NCBI RefSeq assembly: GCF_053078305.1
Contig: NZ_CP166879.1
DNA: 64,000 nucleotides
Strand: one strand, 5' to 3'
The notes under the pieces are model-generated. The model was not told the origin of the DNA. It saw nothing but the letters and a program-made list of their open reading frames with translations, and did not search any database. How positions within the stretch are numbered: position 1 is the stretch's first letter; each line of letters opens with the position of its first letter. The translations under genes and the position numbers were made by a program. Below are positions 1 to 53,072 of this stretch, piece by piece.

Positions 1-1924
<1,924 letters not shown>

Positions 1925-1966
1925 TTATAGCACAGTGGTGGTGACTTGACCACCGTGCGCGTAGTG

Positions 1967-3268
1967 TCAAGCAGAGGTAAATTGCGGGATGTTATGCCAT
2001 AACGGCCAGCTAAACGAGAAGCGGGCACCACCCAGTTCGCTGGTGTCACAATTAACCGTACCGCCCATTGCCAGTGCTATAGAGTGGACAATTGCCAGCC
2101 CCAGCCCGCAGCCGCCGGTTGAGCGATCCCGGCTGGGATCGAGGCGAACAAAAGGTTCAAAGATATGTTCGCGGTTTTCTGGGGCAATCCCTGGGCCATC
2201 ATCCTCAACAATTAATGTCGCTCTATTCCCCGACAGTAGCAGGCTGGTTTCAACCGTTGAATGGCAGTAGCGAAGGGCGTTATTGAGCAAATTATCCAGC
2301 ACGCGCTCCATTAAGCGCATATCCAACGCCGCATAATGGCCTTGCATGAGCGTTTTTATCCGTACCGTTTTATCGGGCGTTACTGCCTGAATATCTGCCA
2401 GATGCGTTGATAGCCACAACGGCAGGTCTGGTTCGCTAAGATGAAGCTCGTTTTGTGGGCGATCGAGTCGGGCATAAGTCAGCAGCTCTTCAATTAAAGC
2501 TTCAAGTTGACTGATATCACGATTCAACGCCTGGGATTCGGCGGCGCTCAGGTTATCGCTCATCTCCAGTCGATAACGCAGGCGCACTAACGGTGTTCGC
2601 AGTTCGTGAGCGATACCGTCAATAAGCTGTTTTTTGCTGGCAATCAAGGCGTTGATATTGTCCGCCATCTGGTTAAATGCGATACCAAGTCGTTCAAAGC
2701 TCGAACCCTCATCAAAGTGGATACGTTCATTGAGATGCCCATCGCCAAATCGTTGCGCCGCTGCTTCCAGTTTTAACATATCCTGCCAGTGCGGACGCAT
2801 CCAGATAAACACCGGAAAGGCGAGGGAAATAGCAATAAAAGCGATCAGGGCGATATCCAGCAATCGCATCTGATGGAGATAATAAAGATAAGGAACAGGA
2901 CCAACTGCCAGCACGTAGTGGCTGCGCGGGATACGCTGCAAAAACGTGTACTGATCGTCCAGGGCGACAATTTCGCCGCCACGCAGTCGGTGCATGGAAA
3001 TATCATCAAGATGGTATTTACTCAGTGGCTCGACACGCAGATCGAAAGAGAGATTTAAATCCATCTCTTTCAGCGTCTTACCCCAGTCGTGTGGGGGGAT
3101 CTCACGCAATTCGCTGCGCATCAGATACAGCGAACTGTTCATCAAATCATCCAGCGACTGTTTGCCCGCGCGTTCGGCGGTAAATTTGTACACCAGCCCA
3201 ACCAGCAGAGACATCACAAGGAAGCAGACAAACAATAACAGGTAAAACTGGATAAACAGTTTTTTCAT
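1967..3268 (-). CDS. rstB: Sensor histidine kinase RstB
   Basis: 433-aa minus-strand ORF; N-terminal TM segments, HAMP region, H-box (AHELRTPL) and HATPase C-terminus; synteny with rstA. Confidence 0.9.
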   Translation of the reverse strand: MKKLFIQFYLLLFVCFLVMSLLVGLVYKFTAERAGKQSLDDLMNSSLYLMRSELREIPPHDWGKTLKEMDLNLSFDLRVEPLSKYHLDDISMHRLRGGEIVALDDQYTFLQRIPRSHYVLAVGPVPYLYYLHQMRLLDIALIAFIAISLAFPVFIWMRPHWQDMLKLEAAAQRFGDGHLNERIHFDEGSSFERLGIAFNQMADNINALIASKKQLIDGIAHELRTPLVRLRYRLEMSDNLSAAESQALNRDISQLEALIEELLTYARLDRPQNELHLSEPDLPLWLSTHLADIQAVTPDKTVRIKTLMQGHYAALDMRLMERVLDNLLNNALRYCHSTVETSLLLSGNRATLIVEDDGPGIAPENREHIFEPFVRLDPSRDRSTGGCGLGLAIVHSIALAMGGTVNCDTSELGGARFSFSWPLWHNIPQFTSA

Positions 3269-3271
3269 CGC

Positions 3272-3991
3272 TTATTCCCATGCATGAGGCGCAAAAAGAT
3301 AGCCTTTGTTACGCACAGTTTTAATGCGATAAGGTTCTGCGGCGTTATCGAGCAGTTTTTTTCTTAACCGCGAAATAGCCACGTCCACGCTACGATCCAG
3401 TCCGTCATAACTGACGCCGCGTAAATTTTTCAGCAATGCATCGCGGTCCATGATTTGCCCGGCATGGGTAGCTAATTCCCACAATAATTCGAAATCAGCT
3501 GTCGAGAGCGAGATTTCAGTGTTAGCCAGGGTGACTACGCGGTTGATGGGATCGATGGTCAACGTGCCGAAATGCAGGGCTTTGTAGGGAGTCAGAGACG
3601 TTTCCTGAAGACCTTTGGTCAGTGTGGCTTGCTCATTCTGACGCAAATGCAAACGTAAACGCGCTAACAAAACAGCAGGGGGCGTCGTTTTGAGAATATA
3701 GTCGCAGGCACCCATTTCCAGTGCCAGGATATGGTTCATATCGCTATCGAGAGAGGTTAGAAGAACAATCGGTCCGGACCACTTTGCGCGTAAATCACGA
3801 CAAATGGTCATGCCGTCCTTGCCTGGTAGCATGATGTCGAGTAACACCAAATCCGGATTTTCTCGCAAAATGGTTTCTTCGGCCTGGTCGCCGCGCGGCT
3901 CTACGGTAACCTGCATATCATGTTTTGCCAGGTACGCGGCAATCAGTGAACCGACTTCCGCATCATCTTCCACAAATACGATAGTGTTCAT
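3272..3991 (-). CDS. rstA: Response regulator RstA (OmpR family)
   Basis: Translation MNTIVFVEDD... with receiver and winged-helix domains; track ORF trimmed by 20 codons to the ATG at 3989-3991. Confidence 0.9.
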   Translation of the reverse strand: MNTIVFVEDDAEVGSLIAAYLAKHDMQVTVEPRGDQAEETILRENPDLVLLDIMLPGKDGMTICRDLRAKWSGPIVLLTSLDSDMNHILALEMGACDYILKTTPPAVLLARLRLHLRQNEQATLTKGLQETSLTPYKALHFGTLTIDPINRVVTLANTEISLSTADFELLWELATHAGQIMDRDALLKNLRGVSYDGLDRSVDVAISRLRKKLLDNAAEPYRIKTVRNKGYLFAPHAWE

Positions 3992-4119
3992 AACATTCAC
4001 GGTAGATATAAAAACGTCACAATACACCGCGCTGTTTTTACTTACTATCAATCGTTTCTAAACAAGTTTTCATCAGGTATTCTACTGATGACTTGTTATG
4101 GAAGTGTTAAGGTAAAAAG

Positions 4120-38631: not shown

Positions 38632-38794
38632 AATGGCAGCCTCTTGGTTGAGTATTAATAACTCACCACCAAGGTTTTCCACGACCATAAGGGTGGTGAG
38701 ACGTACAGGGGTGGAAATACCGGTCAACCAAGAATCCGGCCAGCCTTGCGGCTGCCCTGCACGCCCCACCATAATCTGAATGTGGCTGTGCATT

Positions 38795-38823
38795 ACGCAT
38801 AAAAAAACCGCCTGAGCGCGGTT
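38795..38823 (-). terminator. Weak intrinsic terminator between the DicF-like RNA and the Rha-like gene
   Basis: Minus-strand AACCGCGCTCAGGCGG followed by TTTTTTT; stem only 4-5 bp. Confidence 0.3.
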
Positions 38824-39119
38824 ATGCGCTTGATTGAATTCCGGGTTTCCACGCCCGGCACCCGCTTTATGAGGTGCAGATGAACTATAATTCCACCCGT
38901 TCTGGTTTTCAATAGCTACATTCAACATTTTCTCTTACCCTTCATCACCGAAGTGAACTTTGTTGATGCAGTGCCTGGTGCCTCCAGGTGACGTTAACCA
39001 GTTAACAATTAACGCCGGAATACAGAAGTATGCCCGTTACGCCCCGTAAAAGACCACTTTACGGTTTTAACTGTTCCGCGTGCGCTTAGCCGCATTCACC
39101 GCATCACAAAATTCACTTT

Positions 39120-39177
39120 AAAAAGGGTGGCAGAGCAGTCACGGAGTAGAACTGATGCCACCAAAGACTACACATGG
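39120..39177 (-). ncRNA. dicF: DicF-like small RNA
   Basis: Minus strand reads ...GGTGGCATCAGTTCTACTCCGTGACTGCTCTGCCACCCTTTTT, near-identical to the 3' two-thirds of K-12 DicF including its terminator hairpin; 5' segment diverges. Confidence 0.55.
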
Positions 39178-44080: not shown

Positions 44081-44538
44081 GAGAGGTTAACTATGAGGCG
44101 CTTCGTGAGGCAGCACAAAACTATCAGTCGACGCTGGCGTGGTATCAGGCTATCCCGGACAGCCCAAATGCTGAACGGGATTGTGATGCGGCTCTTGCTG
44201 CGTTTAAGCGTCACATCCGTCATCGGGAAGCGGATATTATCGCTGATTTGCTGGATGGACTGGAAGAAGCAAAATCACAACTCAACGAGCAACGTGAGTA
44301 TTACGAAGGTGTTATCTCGGATGGGAGTAAGCGCATTGCTGAACTGGAAGCGCGGGAAGTTCAATTACCGACTCGCTACGACCTTCGATATGGACACCCG
44401 ATAAATGCAGATGAGCGACAAGTCATGATACCTAAAGAAAATGGCAGTTGGCTTTACCTGATTGACCTAGAACACGCATTACGCGTCGCTGGCATTCGCA
44501 TCAAAGGAGAGGAGCATGGAAATAAAACCAGAGGATGA
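44077..44538 (+). CDS. Hypothetical phage protein (Ead/Ea22-like, coiled-coil)
   Basis: 153-aa ORF overlapping neighbours by 4 nt; coiled-coil centre; family assignment tentative. Confidence 0.45.
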   Translation: MREVNYEALREAAQNYQSTLAWYQAIPDSPNAERDCDAALAAFKRHIRHREADIIADLLDGLEEAKSQLNEQREYYEGVISDGSKRIAELEAREVQLPTRYDLRYGHPINADERQVMIPKENGSWLYLIDLEHALRVAGIRIKGEEHGNKTRG

Positions 44539-44872
44539 GTTAAGCAATATCGTTTTATTTCCGGTAAAAGAGGATGACCCTCGTAATCAGGTTAATTTTC
44601 TTTATGAGCCATCGGAAAGACCATATTGTCATCACGCCTCTGTTCGGGTTGACGAAAAAGAGCGTCAGGTCCGCTGTAAAATCTGCGGTGCAGTTGTGGA
44701 GCCGTTTGACTGGATGCTCTCTGTGGCGAAAAGAGAAACCAGACTGGCAGATGATGTAAGGCTATTGCACCAGGAGGAACAGGAAAGGCGGAAAAATATA
44801 GAAAAGTTAATTCAGATTGAGCGTAACGCGAAAGCGCGGATACGCAGGGCGACAAAATCCAGAACTGAATAA
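44516..44872 (+). CDS. Hypothetical protein with possible zinc-ribbon
   Basis: 118-aa ORF; CHH...CKIC motif, basic C-terminus. Confidence 0.45.
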   Translation: MEIKPEDELSNIVLFPVKEDDPRNQVNFLYEPSERPYCHHASVRVDEKERQVRCKICGAVVEPFDWMLSVAKRETRLADDVRLLHQEEQERRKNIEKLIQIERNAKARIRRATKSRTE

Positions 44873-44922
44873 ATAAATTTAGCGCTGTAAATAAAATCTA
44901 ATCCTTAACTGGAGGTATATTT

Positions 44923-45135
44923 ATGTTAAATACACAGAAATCCATTAATGCGGAAAAATATAACGAGTGGGCAAGAAAATTCTCTGAGCAGATTTTTAAA
45001 ATTACTGGCGATGAGAATGCGGCAAAAAATGAATTAGAACCGTGGACGCCTGAAGGAGCCGACCCAAATTATTGCTGGAGGGAGGTTGATCCAGTTGATG
45101 CTGCAAATGAAGCTATGAGTTATCACAACGATTAA
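44923..45135 (+). CDS. Hypothetical protein
   Basis: 70-aa ORF preceded by GGAGG. Confidence 0.45.
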   Translation: MLNTQKSINAEKYNEWARKFSEQIFKITGDENAAKNELEPWTPEGADPNYCWREVDPVDAANEAMSYHND

Positions 45136-45167
45136 TGTCAGGAGGCCGCCCGAAAGGGCGGTAATGA

Positions 45168-45386
45168 ATGGTCACATTATTTAGAAAAAAATATCCGCGA
45201 AAGAGTAGAACAACAGAATTTCTGTTTCTCATTCTGTTTATCGTGTTGATGATACCGATATCCCCGTTAATCCTAGTCTGGATAATCGGAAAAATAATTG
45301 AGCCAGTTATTGAATTGTATAACGACGTGGTATGGGCGTCATTCAACACACTGCACAATAAAATTAATCCGTATAAGGAAAGCTGA
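45168..45386 (+). CDS. Hypothetical small membrane protein
   Basis: 72-aa AT-rich ORF with one long hydrophobic segment, filling the gap before the HNH gene. Confidence 0.35.
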   Translation: MVTLFRKKYPRKSRTTEFLFLILFIVLMIPISPLILVWIIGKIIEPVIELYNDVVWASFNTLHNKINPYKES

Positions 45387-45387
45387 T

Positions 45388-45753
45388 ATGGCACTGACGA
45401 AAAAACAACGCGCAGAACTGCGCATGAAGTTCGGTGGTCGCTGTGCTTATTGCGGCTGCGAACTTGGCGAAAAGTGGCATGCAGACCATGTAAAACCGGT
45501 CATTCGTTTTGATGGAAATATGCTTCACCAGGAACGTGACGATATATCCAACATGGTTCCGGCATGCCACCCATGCAATCTGCACAAGCATTGCAGTAGT
45601 CTGGAAGATTATCGGCGAATTATCAGTGATGGTCGTCGTGAATTCCTTGCGTCCGGGAAAGGCAAAGCGCTGGTTCGTATGGGATTGGTTGAAATGAAAT
45701 CTGACCCGGTTGTGTTCTGGTTTGAAAAATATCAAGAAGGGGCTACGGCATGA
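45388..45753 (+). CDS. HNH endonuclease
   Basis: Translation [26 protein letters not shown]...WHADHVKPV...[11 protein letters not shown]; AAGGAA SD upstream. Confidence 0.75.
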
Positions 45754-46094
45754 CGACTTTTACCAGAGAGCAGTTAATAGCTCACGCAGAGGAGACTATT
45801 GAAGCACAGAGACTGTGCATACCGGGCACAATCGACCATGACATCATCCGCACATATAAGATGGATATTGCTGTTCTGGAAATCGCACTGGTATCGCTGG
45901 CAGCAGAGCCAGCCGGTAAATTGCATGAATACAAACCAGTGGGATATCAGCGTCTGGTCGATGAGTTAACCATGCTGGTAAAGCAGTTAACCTGGCAACT
46001 GAGGAAAGCGAAGCCAGACTGCAAATTACCGGATAAGGCGATGAGTTATCTGGAGCGGAACGGACTGATAAGCGTGGAGGATATTTTACGATGA
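45750..46094 (+). CDS. Hypothetical phage protein
   Basis: 114-aa ORF overlapping the HNH stop. Confidence 0.5.
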
Positions 46095-46385
46095 CCTGGC
46101 CTGAAGCATTAACAACGGTAGGAATTGCGATGGCGGTGGCGCTGGTGGTGTATTCGATTTGCCGCTGGGGATAAAAACGGTTTGCGGGAAAAGGAGAGTT
46201 AAGTAGAATTGCAGCGGGTGCTTGAGGCTATCTGTCTCAGGCATGAACACCAAAAGGCAGATAGAGAAAAGCCCCAGTTAACATTACGCGTCCGGCAAGA
46301 CGCTTAACATTAATCTGAGGCTCAATCTGTGAACGGCAAATCTAGGTTAGCCTCTTACGCGCCGAAAGGCAAGGAGAAGCAGGCT

Positions 46386-46541
46386 ATGAAGCAGCAAAAG
46401 GCGATGTTAGTCGCCCTGATCGTCATCTGTATTACCGTCATTGTGACGGCACTGGTAACGAGGAAAGACCTCTGCGAGGTACGAATCCGAACCGGCCAGA
46501 CGGAGGTCGCTGTCTTCACAGCTTACGAACCTGAGGAGTAA
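46386..46541 (+). CDS. hokD: Hok/Gef-family type I toxin (HokD-like)
   Basis: Translation MKQQKAMLVALIVICITVIVTALVTRKDLCEVRIRTGQTEVAVFTAYEPEE; upstream in-frame extension corresponds to the overlapping mok frame. Confidence 0.85.
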   Translation: MKQQKAMLVALIVICITVIVTALVTRKDLCEVRIRTGQTEVAVFTAYEPEE

Positions 46542-46643
46542 GAGACCAGGCGGGGGAGAAATCCCTCGCCACCTCTGATGTGCCAGGCATCCTCAACGCA
46601 CCCGCACTTAACATGCTTCGGCGGGTTTTGTTGTATTAGAATA

Positions 46644-46961
46644 TCAGGATATTACCTGGATCCCGTTTTTCTCGACAACTGAAAGAAGCCGAAGAGCTGC
46701 ACCTCCCGGGCGTTTCACTCCTCGTTCCCAGTCTGATATCAGGTTTTTACTGACGTTGAGGTATCTGGCAAAAACAGGTTGAGACAGATGCTCTCGTTCT
46801 CGCAGTGCACGGATCCTTTCTGGAGACATTACCGGCGCAGGCTGAAGACAAGTTTCATCGAATTCGCGCATAGTTTGTTTTGTGATTGCACCGATATCAT
46901 GGAGTGACTCCATCATTTCATGTACAGATGCAAGTGCATCACTGCGGTAATTTTTACTCAT
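46644..46961 (-). CDS. HTH (XRE family) antitoxin, HigA-like
   Basis: 105-aa ORF with C-terminal HTH (LSQPVFARYLNVSKNLISDWERG); overlaps the upstream toxin gene by 8 nt. Confidence 0.55.
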   Translation of the reverse strand: MSKNYRSDALASVHEMMESLHDIGAITKQTMREFDETCLQPAPVMSPERIRALREREHLSQPVFARYLNVSKNLISDWERGVKRPGGAALRLLSVVEKNGIQVIS

Positions 46962-47325
46962 TGGGTACCTCCGTGAACTGGCCTTGTTGAATCAATTGTG
47001 CCAGCTGTTCATCAGTAAGATTGAGGACATGGGGAGCGGCTTTTCGAAAAGCATTTTCCTCTATAGCAGTGATATTCTCTCGTTCATTCTTTGCGTATGC
47101 GTAGATGAAAAAGGCTTTTTCTGCAACGCGGTAAAAAATTATTGTCCGGTAACCGCCTGATTTTCCGCCACCACTTCGGGCTAATCTTTGTTTAATGACA
47201 CCACTACCCAAATTTGCGGATATGATCCCCTTATCGGCCAGCTCCACGATTTTGCGCAGCGATTTATCGGAAATCCGATGTTTTCGGGCGAAACGTTCAA
47301 ACCAGGCGTTTTTGAAAATTCGCAT
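46954..47325 (-). CDS. RelE/ParE-superfamily toxin, HigB-like
   Basis: 123-aa ORF with GGGKSGGYRTIIFY segment; toxin-first order typical of higBA. Confidence 0.5.
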   Translation of the reverse strand: MRIFKNAWFERFARKHRISDKSLRKIVELADKGIISANLGSGVIKQRLARSGGGKSGGYRTIIFYRVAEKAFFIYAYAKNERENITAIEENAFRKAAPHVLNLTDEQLAQLIQQGQFTEVPNE

Positions 47326-47548
47326 ACCTGCCTCTGCATTTTATATAACACATAGTGTTACACCATGTGGACTATGGAGGCAATCTTTATTTGAGAATGC
47401 TTGCTGATTTATCGGTGTTCAAAAAACAGACGTAATTCAGATTGTATAAACGGCAGACAGAAAAAGTCATTGTTCTTGCGCATAAAATCCTCAGATTTAC
47501 TGAGTGAAATGCGTCTCTTTTCATGGTTATAGTCCGAGAGAAGCGATA

Positions 47549-47776
47549 ATGCATTTCATTTCCTTTACGTCAGGAGGTGTTGTGAAAATCCCAGCCAGTT
47601 TGATCCCGGGGTTTTATGAGAGCACGCGCCCGGTTGTTGTTTACAGAAACAGTGATGGTTCTTTTCAATGTGGTTTTGTTATGCGAAGTAATGAGGTTGT
47701 TGTAAGCCTTTCTCTTCTTTCTGAGGTAAGAGAGTTGGCAGGATTACCTGTTGATGATATTCAGAAGCAGCTATAA
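47549..47776 (+). CDS. Hypothetical protein (start uncertain; alternative GTG at 47582 has an AGGAGG SD)
   Basis: Open frame from 47504; no family recognised. Confidence 0.4.
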   Translation: MHFISFTSGGVVKIPASLIPGFYESTRPVVVYRNSDGSFQCGFVMRSNEVVVSLSLLSEVRELAGLPVDDIQKQL

Positions 47777-47829: not shown

Positions 47830-48102
47830 ATGGCGCACGATATCAAACATCACAATTCTGATACCGGCCCTGCCAGCAGGCACGGGCGGCGTTCTCACAC
47901 ATTCAAATCTGACTGGTTCCTGCATGACCCATGCACTGAAGAACAGGCCGAATGGCTGATTCAGTGCTACCGCAGACGCGGGTATAAGTTTGAGAAAGCC
48001 CTCAGTCTTGACCGTCGCCACTGGATAATCTCCGTCAGGCTCCCTTATTCCGAACGCCCACCGCGTCCGTCCCGTACATTCCAGCAGCGCATCTGGAGGT
48101 AA
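47830..48102 (+). CDS. Hypothetical protein
   Basis: Translation MAHDIKHHNSDTG...; GGAGA SD 7 nt upstream. Confidence 0.45.
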   Translation: MAHDIKHHNSDTGPASRHGRRSHTFKSDWFLHDPCTEEQAEWLIQCYRRRGYKFEKALSLDRRHWIISVRLPYSERPPRPSRTFQQRIWR

Positions 48103-51757: not shown

Positions 51758-51833
51758 GGCCCTTTAGCTCAGTGGTGAGAGCGAGCGACTCATAATCGCC
51801 AGGTCGCTGGTTCAAATCCAGCAAGGGCCACCA
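51758..51833 (+). tRNA. tRNA with CAU anticodon, ileX-like (tRNA-Ile2 lysidine type)
   Basis: Cloverleaf GGCCCTTTAGCTCAGTGGTGAGAGC...ACTCATAATCG...GGTTCAAATCC...AAGGGCCACCA; close to E. coli ileX. Confidence 0.75.
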
Positions 51834-51842
51834 TATCACATA

Positions 51843-51919
51843 CCGCCATTAGCTCATCGGGACAGAGCGTCAGCCTTCGAAGCTGGTTGCGCGGGGTTCG
51901 AGTCCTCGATGGCGGTCCA
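51843..51919 (+). tRNA. tRNA-Arg (anticodon TCG)
   Basis: Acceptor stem CCGCCAT/ATGGCGG, anticodon loop CTTCGAA, T-loop GGTTCGAGTCC, 3' CCA. Confidence 0.7.
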
Positions 51920-51932
51920 TTATCGGTATTCA

Positions 51933-52009
51933 GCGTTGTTAGCTCAGCCGGACAGAGCAATTGCCTTCTAAGCAATCGGTCACTGGTTCGAATCCAGTAC
52001 AACGCGCCA
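51933..52009 (+). tRNA. tRNA-Arg (anticodon TCT)
   Basis: Acceptor stem GCGTTGT/ACAACGC, anticodon loop CTTCTAA, T-loop GGTTCGAATCC, 3' CCA. Confidence 0.75.
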
Positions 52010-52178
52010 TACTTATTTTTCTGGCTCGCTTTTGCGGGCCTTTTTTGTATCCGCGCCACGCCCGGCGCATATCAACCACAGAGCCTTTCGGGGGTGAGCT
52101 TACGGAGTGGTCAGTGTGACTTTCTCTGTGGGCAGATCGCTCCCGGGCGTTGGCTCACCCACCCAAAGGAACGTCACG

Positions 52179-52610
52179 ATGTTTGGTATTTTCAAAAAGA
52201 AAACCCGCAGAGCAGCAACGGAAATTAAAAAGTTTGAGAAACGCGATCTGGCACAGGCGGTTATTAATGCTGCCTACCTGGTAGCCTATGCAGATGGTGA
52301 ATGTGAGGCTTCAGAGAAAGCGAAGATCGAACAGGTATTACGTAACCAGCCTGCGTTGTCCGCGTTTACGTCAGAAATTAATGCCATCAGTGCCACGATC
52401 ACAGGTCAGCTTGACACCAACTTTAAAATTGGTCGTCGAGCGGCGTTGCGTGAAATTGAAGATGTGAAACACGATACGCGTGAAGCGGAAGATGTGCTGG
52501 ATGTGGCGGTGGCTATTGCTGAAGCAGATGGTGAAATTGAGCCGGAAGAGCGTAAGGTTCTGGAAGAGATTGCAGGTGTTCTTGGCCTGCGACTGGAGAA
52601 CCACCTGTGA
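52179..52610 (+). CDS. TerB-domain protein
   Basis: Translation MFGIFKKKTRRAATEIKKFEKRDLAQAVINAAYLVAYADGECEASEKAKIEQVL...AIAEADGEIEPEERKVLEEIAGVLGL; AAAGGA SD upstream. Confidence 0.6.
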   Translation: MFGIFKKKTRRAATEIKKFEKRDLAQAVINAAYLVAYADGECEASEKAKIEQVLRNQPALSAFTSEINAISATITGQLDTNFKIGRRAALREIEDVKHDTREAEDVLDVAVAIAEADGEIEPEERKVLEEIAGVLGLRLENHL

Positions 52611-52771
52611 CGGTAAAACTGCGTCTGGCCGCTGTGGCACTCCTGCTGTTTCTGGTGGTGATGGTGGATTTCACCAGCAGGATCATGTCGGTGCTGGCGG
52701 ATGGAGTGCTGGTGGTCGGTATTGTGGTGGTGCTTTTTCCTTTGGTGAAAAAGGACATGCCAGGTAGTTAG
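52607..52771 (+). CDS. Possible small hydrophobic protein translationally coupled to the TerB-like gene
   Basis: GTG overlapping the upstream TGA (GTGA), GGAGA 7 nt upstream; 54 codons, two hydrophobic stretches; below the track length cutoff. Confidence 0.3.
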   Translation: MTVKLRLAAVALLLFLVVMVDFTSRIMSVLADGVLVVGIVVVLFPLVKKDMPGS

Positions 52772-53019
52772 CCGGGTATCAGTCATGCCCCGAAAATTTT
52801 AAATGTCTCACAATTCAGACGGTTGACAGTTGTCTGTTTTGCGGGGAGTTTGTTAAAAGAAACTGGCATGGTGAATCCCCCTGAGCGGAGGGGCGACTGG
52901 TGCATTAGGTGTTATCTTTGATACCTAGGAAAGTGAACGCGCGGGTTTGGTTGCACCGGGCTGAACTCACCGGGAGGCACCCGGCATCATGCGCATGATG
53001 ATACAGATACGCGGCTTTA

Positions 53020-53046
53020 GCCCCTCTCCGGAGGGGCTTTTATATG
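53020..53046 (+). terminator. Intrinsic terminator
   Basis: GCCCCTC-TCCG-GAGGGGC hairpin followed by TTTTATATG. Confidence 0.6.
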
Positions 53047-53072
53047 AATTTTGTAAGATATGAGTAAACTAA

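Follow-up and report, generated by a model that had tools for sequence, protein, structure and literature searches.

A complete hok/mok/sok locus and a HigB-2/HigA-2-family pair, probably two independent cassettes, lie tail to tail in an Escherichia coli prophage

We analysed two toxin systems that lie side by side in a stretch of 64,000 nucleotides of the Escherichia coli chromosome (contig NZ_CP166879.1 of NCBI RefSeq assembly GCF_053078305.1). This whole stretch is called the window below, and positions are counted from its first letter. The window carries a lambda-like prophage from about 38 kb onward. Within it, a complete type I locus, hok/mok/sok, on the plus strand meets a type II pair of the HigB-2/HigA-2 family on the minus strand. 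The two are very probably self-contained accessory cassettes of the prophage, independent of each other and arranged tail to tail. The analysis is computational and covers anatomy, family membership, conservation, cassette borders and RNA folds.

An earlier reading made from the sequence alone (the sequence-only reading) had listed the open reading frames (ORFs) of this region. It had described two adjacent toxin systems: a HokD-like toxin gene with an overlapping upstream mok frame and, on the opposite strand, a toxin-first pair of a RelE/ParE-superfamily protein and a helix-turn-helix (HTH) protein with an 8-nt overlap. All of its ORFs are present at the positions given, and this description holds; chance would not produce these features. 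Both modules belong to textbook families and have annotations in over 160 complete E. coli genomes, O157:H7 included; nothing here lies outside known kinds. The genes already carry labels from the Prokaryotic Genome Annotation Pipeline (PGAP), namely hokD, 'type II toxin-antitoxin system RelE/ParE family toxin' and 'helix-turn-helix domain-containing protein'.

Ten related loci (L001 to L010) were compared with the window. L001 is the closest relative, L003 is E. coli K-12 MG1655, L004 is phage vB_EcoS-640R1, L005 is vB_EcoS-689R5, L006 is HannyBb and L007 is E. coli O104:H4 2011C-3493. Cassette borders were drawn from pairwise comparison of these loci.

The hok/mok/sok locus

The hok gene (46386-46541, plus strand) is of the HokD type and encodes 51 amino acids, 49 of which are identical in K-12 HokD. 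The product matches PHROG 251 ('MokW-like host killing', E = 7e-33), and its homologues are named hokD by PGAP. It fits the pattern of the Hok/Gef peptides (about 50 residues, an N-terminal hydrophobic helix and a conserved cysteine) and has cysteines at positions 15 and 30 (C15 and C30). A mok-type frame of 70 amino acids (46329-46541, plus strand) starts at a GTG and is in frame with hok, as mokC is annotated with hokC in K-12. Its start codon and its Shine-Dalgarno sequence, GAGG at 46317-46320, both fall inside the region complementary to the predicted Sok RNA (46261-46337).

The codon for Tyr47 of Hok is TAC and the next codon is GAA (46524-46529), which makes a TACG context. A-to-I editing by TadA in this context recodes tyrosine to cysteine in hokC, hokD and hokE (bioRxiv 10.1101/2025.08.07.668861).

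The region upstream of hok matches Rfam family RF01794 over the full model (46216-46391; model positions 1-157 of 157; 109.7 bits with a gathering score of 59; E = 4.5e-25). The match is on the hok-sense strand and so describes the hok leader. Seven nucleotides upstream of its start (46216) lies TAGAAT (46204-46209, plus strand), a candidate -10 hexamer of the hok promoter. The pattern TA.AAT does not vary among five aligned hok loci, of which K-12 hokC is one, and no good -35 hexamer was seen.

The predicted full-length hok mRNA (46216-46633, plus strand) comprises the leader, the mok/hok coding region and a 3' untranslated region (UTR) with a fold-back element and the terminator. Over 46216-46634 it folds at -161.3 kcal/mol (z = -5.0 relative to shuffled sequences). 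In the minimum-free-energy fold, the 5' end of the mRNA (46216-46227, plus strand) pairs with a 3' fold-back (fbi)-like element, CCTCAACGCACCC (46591-46603, plus strand), through 12 pairs and one bulge; the element is kept in the aligned hok loci. Removing 45 nt from the 3' end lets the 5' end refold into a local hairpin. A lock between the 5' and 3' ends that yields to refolding when the 3' end is trimmed is the switch known from the hok mRNA of plasmid R1. The locus ends in a terminator hairpin with a T-run (46601-46633, plus strand), which is also the junction with the type II cassette.

The annotated sokC of K-12 served to place the ends of Sok, in an alignment of K-12 hokC/mokC/sokC, the window and three prophage hok loci. 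The predicted antisense RNA runs on the minus strand from 46337 to 46261 and covers the mok Shine-Dalgarno sequence and start codon. It is 77 nt long, compared with 59 nt for sokC, and its hairpin is 18 nt longer. In the predicted fold (-31.5 kcal/mol, z = -4.5), a single-stranded 5' tail of about 10 nt is followed by a long hairpin and then by a U-rich tail. The sequence-only reading had proposed a search of the hok leader for a sok promoter, and the search succeeded: on the minus strand (46344-46372), TTGCCT (46372 to 46367) is followed by a 17-nt spacer and TAACCT (46349 to 46344), with the predicted Sok start at 46337, 7 nt downstream of TAACCT. The promoter blocks AGGTTAGCCTCTTAC and AGGCAAGGAG are conserved among prophage hok loci. 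The layout is like that of the sok promoter of plasmid R1 (TTGCGC-17-TATCCT).

The region around the mok start and the 5' tail of Sok (46320-46343) occurs in two sequence variants, one in the window and L004 and the other in L006, L007 and hokC. The remainder of the leader is nearly identical between them. The variants could be different Sok specificity groups.

Taken as a whole, the hok/mok/sok cassette is complete: peptide, leader, mok, Sok gene and 5'-3' fold-back are all present.

The HigB-2/HigA-2-family pair

The toxin gene (46954-47325, minus strand) encodes 123 amino acids. Profile classification, a check suggested by the sequence-only reading, places the product in Pfam family PF06296 ('RelE') over its full length (positions 1-120 of 120, 159 bits, E = 6.5e-47). 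All 120 toxin homologues among those listed carry the same domain. PF06296 is the family of Vibrio cholerae HigB-2, whose gene precedes that of its antitoxin and which degrades mRNA in a ribosome-dependent manner (2025 review, PMC11980606). V. cholerae HigB-2 (VcHigB2) also gives the best sequence matches of the toxin in the PDB (E = 3e-4). The earlier label of a HigB/HigA-like pair can thus be made more precise: the pair is of the HigB-2/HigA-2 type and not of the Rts1 HigBA type.

Alanine substitution of R51, R64, Y82 or K84 cripples VcHigB2 (PMC5416850), and these residues align with R47, R60, Y77 and K79 of the window toxin. In an alignment of 36 family members (59-85% identical), R60 and K79 never vary, R47 reaches at least 90% conservation and position 77 holds either F or Y. 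Most likely, the toxin is a ribosome-dependent mRNA endonuclease with a RelE-like active site, by analogy with its characterised relative. An NCBIfam match of the toxin to a short-chain dehydrogenase/reductase (SDR) oxidoreductase model is spurious (E = 0.0077; 15 bits, with a cutoff of 538).

The antitoxin gene (46644-46961, minus strand) encodes 105 amino acids, with an N-terminal segment of about 44 residues and a C-terminal XRE HTH domain (residues 45-99). The domain matches HTH_3 (residues 50-94, E = 1.4e-7), and the whole protein matches phrog_2104 (E = 5e-43). Its best solved relative is V. cholerae HigA-2 (VcHigA2; 5jaa), which aligns through residues 39-93 with residues 45-99 of the window protein (E = 6.7e-8). 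The N-terminal 44 residues are likely the toxin-binding segment, as they are the only part of the antitoxin besides the HTH domain. In PADLOC, the antitoxin matches generic HTH models only.

Conservation was assessed by the ratio of nonsynonymous to synonymous divergence (dN/dS). Relative to the 81%-identical allele of L008, with dS of 0.78-1.2 for the two genes, dN/dS is 0.042 for the toxin (at dS 0.78) and 0.048 for the antitoxin; the antitoxin gives 0.010 relative to the O104:H4 allele. Ratios of 0.04-0.05 indicate that both are real genes under strong purifying selection, and the value of 0.042 over dS 0.78 points to long-term selection on the toxin protein.

The toxin comes first (47325 to 46954, then the antitoxin from 46961 to 46644), and this order is the same in all alleles examined. 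The two genes overlap by 8 nt, ATGAGTAA (46954-46961). The Shine-Dalgarno sequence of the antitoxin, GGAGG, falls within the 3' end of the toxin gene, 6 nt before the antitoxin ATG. A candidate antitoxin operator is the perfect 15-bp palindrome TAACAC-N3-GTGTTA (47346-47360), 21-35 nt ahead of the toxin ATG. It is the most conserved block of the toxin upstream region in three alleles that are 81-84% identical. The operator of VcHigA2 is likewise a single inverted repeat, TGTACGC-N5-GCGTACA (PMC11006873).

A consensus scan suggests ATGACT-18-TACAAT (47470 to 47441, minus strand) as the promoter of the toxin-antitoxin operon. Three diverged alleles keep its TAnAnT and GA.TTT positions. An extended -10 element inside the palindrome (TGtTATATA) was rejected since it is not conserved in L008.

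Proposed mechanism

The characterised hok/sok system of R1 and HigBA-2 of V. cholerae suggest how toxicity, RNA processing, Sok silencing, neutralisation and operator use would proceed in the window. The stable hok mRNA would start near 46216 and be held inert by the pairing of its 5' end with the 3' fold-back element. Trimming at the 3' end would let the mRNA refold, so that mok is translated from its GTG at 46329 and drives the translation of hok, as in R1. Sok, a short and unstable RNA from its own promoter inside mok, would cover the mok ribosome-binding site and block mok translation. On loss of the locus, or when Sok synthesis stops, the 51-residue membrane peptide Hok would be made and kill the cell.

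For the type II pair, the 123-residue toxin would cleave mRNA in the ribosomal A site through R47, R60, Y77 and K79, in a ribosome-dependent manner. The antitoxin would neutralise it, probably through its N-terminal 44 residues, and would repress its own operon at the palindrome. The ATGAGTAA overlap and the strong GGAGG may favour synthesis of the antitoxin. Most likely, the two cassettes stabilise the prophage selfishly, by addiction, or serve to exclude other phages; plain selfish persistence is a further candidate role.

Cassette borders and distribution

The hok cassette spans 46168-46632. Its left border lies just past the stop of a 27-codon ORF and its right border at the end of the terminator T-run; the same borders, at 46167-46170 and 46629-46632, recur in L002, L004, L007 and L010. 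The type II cassette begins at 46633 and extends to about 47514 on the minus strand.

Either module is found without the other. L004, L005, L006 and K-12 have hok and no type II pair. The slot downstream of hok holds only 74 bp in L004, a 130-residue ORF in L005 and rem-family ORFs in L006 and K-12. Conversely, L008 and L009 have the type II pair without hok, directly after the 27-codon ORF. In L007 the slot is filled by a Doc toxin gene with an upstream 59-residue ORF and by a decayed allele of the type II pair. Since each occurs without the other in related prophages, hok and the type II pair are independent of each other, and on these sequence comparisons both, as well as the 64-residue ORF beyond the toxin gene (see below), are independently exchangeable cassettes. 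As the borders show, hok, the type II pair and the neighbouring small ORFs are separate units joined at terminator hairpins, and the region illustrates how prophage cargo turns over in a mosaic fashion in lineages of Shiga-toxin-producing E. coli.

The O104:H4 locus has three toxin modules in a row (L007 2413-4230): hokD, the 59-residue ORF with the Doc-family toxin, and the decayed type II pair, with several frameshifts in the toxin and an intact antitoxin (dN/dS 0.01). Copies of the hok terminator motif, CTTCGGCGGGTTTT, flank the Doc-gene insert, as if cassettes recombined at the terminator hairpins.

Of 5426 complete E. coli genomes, 214 carry the type II cassette, and in 165 of them it is at least 99% identical; it is always chromosomal, never on a plasmid. 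At least 80% of the segment 45700-48200, which runs from a 114-residue ORF through hok and the type II pair to the start of the DUF968 gene, is present in at least 166 complete E. coli genomes, including O157:H7, O103:H2 and O145 strains. The cassette is more conserved (99.3-99.9% identity) than its flanks (95-97%). In a collection of 50,697 phage records, none covers the whole arrangement, and a close homologue of the toxin occurs in one record only, PhiR12_3. The protein family of the toxin is broad, with 1418 matches at E <= 1e-5 in Salmonella, Chromatiaceae, Halomonas, cyanobacteria and others.

Alternative explanations

Several observations weigh against the explanation given so far. For hok, the NCBIfam Hok models match (E = 5e-13, 48.6 bits) below their curated cutoff of 73. 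The mok start codon is GTG in the window, where L004 has ATG. At 46614-46615, CC is changed to AT, which gives the terminator a 5' arm of CATGC against the consensus CCCGC-TTCG-GCGGG-TTTT and weakens the tight hairpin; the window shares CATGC with L001, and K-12, L006 and L007 have CCCGC. Chromosomal hok loci of K-12 and other strains are reported as unable to mediate post-segregational killing, in a statement from reference 26 as quoted in bioRxiv 10.1101/2025.08.07.668861.

For the type II pair, no NCBIfam model matches the toxin. An AlphaFold2 model built from the 36-sequence alignment is mediocre (mean predicted local distance difference test score, pLDDT, 64.6). Its top Foldseek matches in the PDB are chains of HigB2 (8a0x) at probability 0.98-0.99, with a TM-score of only 0.37-0.46, a weak agreement. 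The N-terminal 44 residues of the antitoxin are kept between alleles and cannot be aligned to VcHigA2. The base-contacting residues of VcHigA2, R68, E71, N72 and R77 (PMC11006873), are all replaced in the window antitoxin (N73, S76, D77 and V82), so an operator different from that of VcHigA2 is expected. The promoter and terminator sites found by consensus scan do not exceed chance expectation for the region, and the candidate operon promoter carries weight only because it is conserved across alleles. The palindrome is about 80-95 nt downstream of this sole conserved promoter-like site, which makes the regulatory geometry uncertain. PADLOC models match neither Hok nor the 123-residue toxin and thus give no support for a catalogued defence system. 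A literature search found no paper or experimental study on the E. coli copy of the pair. The toxin gene is also frameshifted in a fraction of otherwise near-identical copies, which implies that selection on toxicity is not universal.

Some of these points suit an explanation in which both modules are inert relics, with hok silent as in K-12 and the type II pair decaying while the HTH protein is kept as a regulator or 'immunity' gene. The reported inactivity of chromosomal hok loci in post-segregational killing, as quoted in the same preprint, the GTG start of mok and the weakened terminator stem all favour it for hok. For the pair, 7 of 31 sampled copies with at least 99% identity have their toxin annotated in two pieces, each beside an intact antitoxin. 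A single toxin frameshift is confirmed in L010 (2822-3194), again with an intact antitoxin, the usual pattern in which the toxin decays first; the O104:H4 toxin has several frameshifts, as noted above. Against relics stands the state of the window itself, in which every element is intact: the full Rfam match, the promoter, Sok, the fold-back element and the full-length toxin. The low dN/dS of the toxin over a long divergence and its retained catalytic residues also speak for function. We consider the relic explanation unlikely.

Another explanation joins the two modules in one functional unit, for instance an anti-phage or abortive-infection island. About 10 nt separate the antitoxin stop (46644) from the end of the hok terminator. 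The shared hairpin has no T-run on the minus strand, whereas the alleles of L007 and L008, which do not adjoin hok, have a two-way terminator. Transcription of the type II operon could therefore read through and act as an extra antisense RNA against the whole hok mRNA, which would link type II expression to type I silencing. The arrangement is the same in 166 of the 214 genomes with the pair, and the slot has also collected the Doc toxin gene with its 59-residue ORF. Against this explanation stands the occurrence of each module without the other. The co-occurrence is explained by clonal lineages of Shiga-toxin-producing E. coli that share one prophage type at 95-99.9% identity, PADLOC recognises neither toxin as a defence protein, and a survey found hok not enriched near defence systems (bioRxiv 10.1101/2025.08.07.668861). 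A single coupled unit is accordingly quite improbable. No more probable is a reading in which the segment from the hok terminator to the conserved 90-residue and DUF968 genes is a dedicated cargo hotspot of lambda-like prophages that gathers toxin-antitoxin or defence cassettes, with the two toxin systems of the window perhaps coupled as well; in related loci this segment has the HigBA-2 pair, the Doc gene with its 59-residue ORF, rem or other ORFs.

The sequence-only reading had held that the type II module was exchanged for relBE at the corresponding place beside a fixed hokD; both prophages do have a RelE/ParE-superfamily module next to a HokD-type gene followed by DUF968 (ydfU), but this is scarcely credible given that homology to K-12 is limited to 46372-46632 and 47790 onward, that relBE lies upstream of hokD on the same strand with the antitoxin first while the window pair lies downstream on the opposite strand with the toxin first, that the slot of the window pair holds rem in K-12, 74 bp in L004 and other cargo in L005, and that the upstream border of hok is the block with the 27-codon ORF in the window and an ORF6N anti-repressor gene in O157. 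Pairwise comparison puts the two insertions at opposite borders of hok. The pair is to be described as HigB-2/HigA-2 (PF06296) and not as a positional replacement of relBE.

Neighbouring genes and prophage context

The 27-codon hydrophobic ORF (46091-46174, plus strand) precedes hok, as the sequence-only reading had remarked, and is real and conserved. It forms the 3' end of the upstream gene block rather than part of hok, and is also present where hok is absent (L008 and L009). Its start overlaps the stop of the upstream 114-residue ORF (ATGA), and in other prophages it follows other genes (DUF551 in L008 and L009), again overlapping their stops. In seven of eight loci it has exactly 27 codons, the same stop and conservative substitutions, down to 71% DNA identity in O104:H4, where the product reads MNWPEAFAITGVAMAITFLVYVICRWG; only in L005 is it frameshifted. 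A tblastn search recovers it from 91 phage records, 933W and VT2-Sakai among them. We read it as a small membrane-protein gene that closes the upstream block and is unrelated to hok.

A 64-residue ORF with a GTG start and a GGAGG Shine-Dalgarno sequence (47582-47776, plus strand; phrog_31309, E = 7e-48) is divergent from the toxin gene and part of neither toxin system. It stands beside the type II pair in L001, L002 and L010; L008 and L009 have other sequence instead. Identification of this ORF or of the 90-residue ORF (47830-48102, phrog_1212) with K-12 rem was rejected, since Rem belongs to phrog_340.

In K-12 Qin, an intact 92-codon ORF, MARNAKYYNSD...QQRIWR, lies between rem and ydfU (L003 4310-4585, minus strand; NC_000913.3 about 1644309-1644584). 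The ORF shares 73% identity with the 90-residue ORF of the window and has no coding-sequence annotation in the RefSeq record.

The chromosomal part of the window is identified by positions 1-4000, which hold rstA-rstB-tus-fumC at 99.6% identity to many strains. The prophage genes run from a DicA-like repressor, Cro, YdaT, replication genes, DUF1627 and Ea22-like genes to hokD, and then through the RelE/ParE toxin and the HTH protein to DUF968, RusA, an antiterminator, a methyltransferase and tRNAs. Both toxin cassettes are thereby placed between the replication genes and the DUF968/RusA/Q genes. This order agrees with annotated prophages of strain FHI_NMBU_10 and of O157:H7 strains.

Elsewhere in the prophage, Rfam models find C4 antisense RNA, isrK and DicF on the minus strand near the immunity region (38689-39176). 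Downstream of the methyltransferase gene (51758-53049) they find three tRNAs (about 51.8-52.0 kb) and the small RNA STnc100 (52837-53049, 140.9 bits). A segment of about 1.5 kb (44275-45749) has no counterpart in L001 and is thus another exchangeable cargo segment; it contains a 70-residue ORF and an HNH endonuclease gene (45298 or 45388 to 45753; phrog_2118, E = 4e-57).

Comparison with known systems

The nearest counterpart of the window hok is hokD (relF) of K-12 Qin. The DNA of the two is 96.6-96.9% identical over 46372-46632, which takes in the coding sequence, the 3' UTR, the fold-back element and the terminator, and the same DUF968/ydfU gene follows downstream. Apart from this segment, K-12 Qin shares with the window only the sequence from 47790 onward. 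Upstream of 46372, K-12 has none of the window locus: no hok promoter or 5' leader, no start of mok, and neither Sok nor the -10 hexamer of its promoter. These elements have been replaced by relBE, which is on the same strand as hokD and is followed by it as third gene. The window has an intact, self-regulated hokD locus of which K-12 keeps only the coding sequence and 3' UTR. Pedersen and Gerdes are said to have described hokD as a truncated locus in 1999, in agreement with this comparison. The window type II pair occupies the slot of K-12 rem, downstream of the terminator of hok, and is encoded on the other strand. On the aligned sequences, the insertions of relBE and of HigBA-2 are unrelated events at opposite borders of hok.

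With hok/mok/sok of plasmid R1 and hokC/mokC/sokC of K-12 (RF01794), the window locus shares the long leader, the overlapping mok, the antisense Sok with its promoter inside mok, the 5'-3' fold-back pairing and a Hok/Gef peptide of about 50 residues. It differs in that mok is in frame with hok (as mokC is) and starts with GTG, and the Sok hairpin exceeds that of sokC by 18 nt. In contrast to R1, the locus is in a lambda-like prophage and not on a plasmid, and its activity is predicted.

Among type II systems, the closest is HigB-2/HigA-2 (VCA0468/0469) of the V. cholerae superintegron. The toxins share PF06296, the toxin-first order, the active-site residues and a glycine-rich beta2-beta3 loop; the antitoxins share a C-terminal XRE HTH domain, a short N-terminal segment and a single inverted repeat upstream, in the window a candidate operator. 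The window toxin is 13 residues longer than VcHigB2 and about 25-28% identical to it in the structural alignment. The antitoxins differ in the N-terminus, which cannot be aligned, in the four base-contacting residues and in the repeat (TAACAC-N3-GTGTTA versus TGTACGC-N5-GCGTACA). The V. cholerae pair is on an integron cassette and the window pair on a prophage.

The remaining relatives are more distant. K-12 RelE is in the same RelE/ParE superfamily (BECR fold, predicted for the window toxin) as the window toxin but belongs to PF05016, and HigB of Rts1 belongs to PF05015 (PMC11980606); at E <= 10, a Pfam scan of the window toxin lists PF06296 only, with no match to PF05015 or PF05016. RelBE has the antitoxin first, whereas the window pair has the toxin first. 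RelB appears in the K-12 record as a DNA-binding repressor, and the title of a reference in PMC11980606 assigns it a ribbon-helix-helix motif for DNA binding; the window antitoxin has an XRE HTH domain. HigBA of Rts1 (Proteus vulgaris) resembles the window pair in its toxin-first order, in its HTH antitoxin and in the activity of its toxin as a ribosome-dependent mRNase, which for the window toxin is predicted, and differs from it in the HigB-like family, PF05015, of that toxin.

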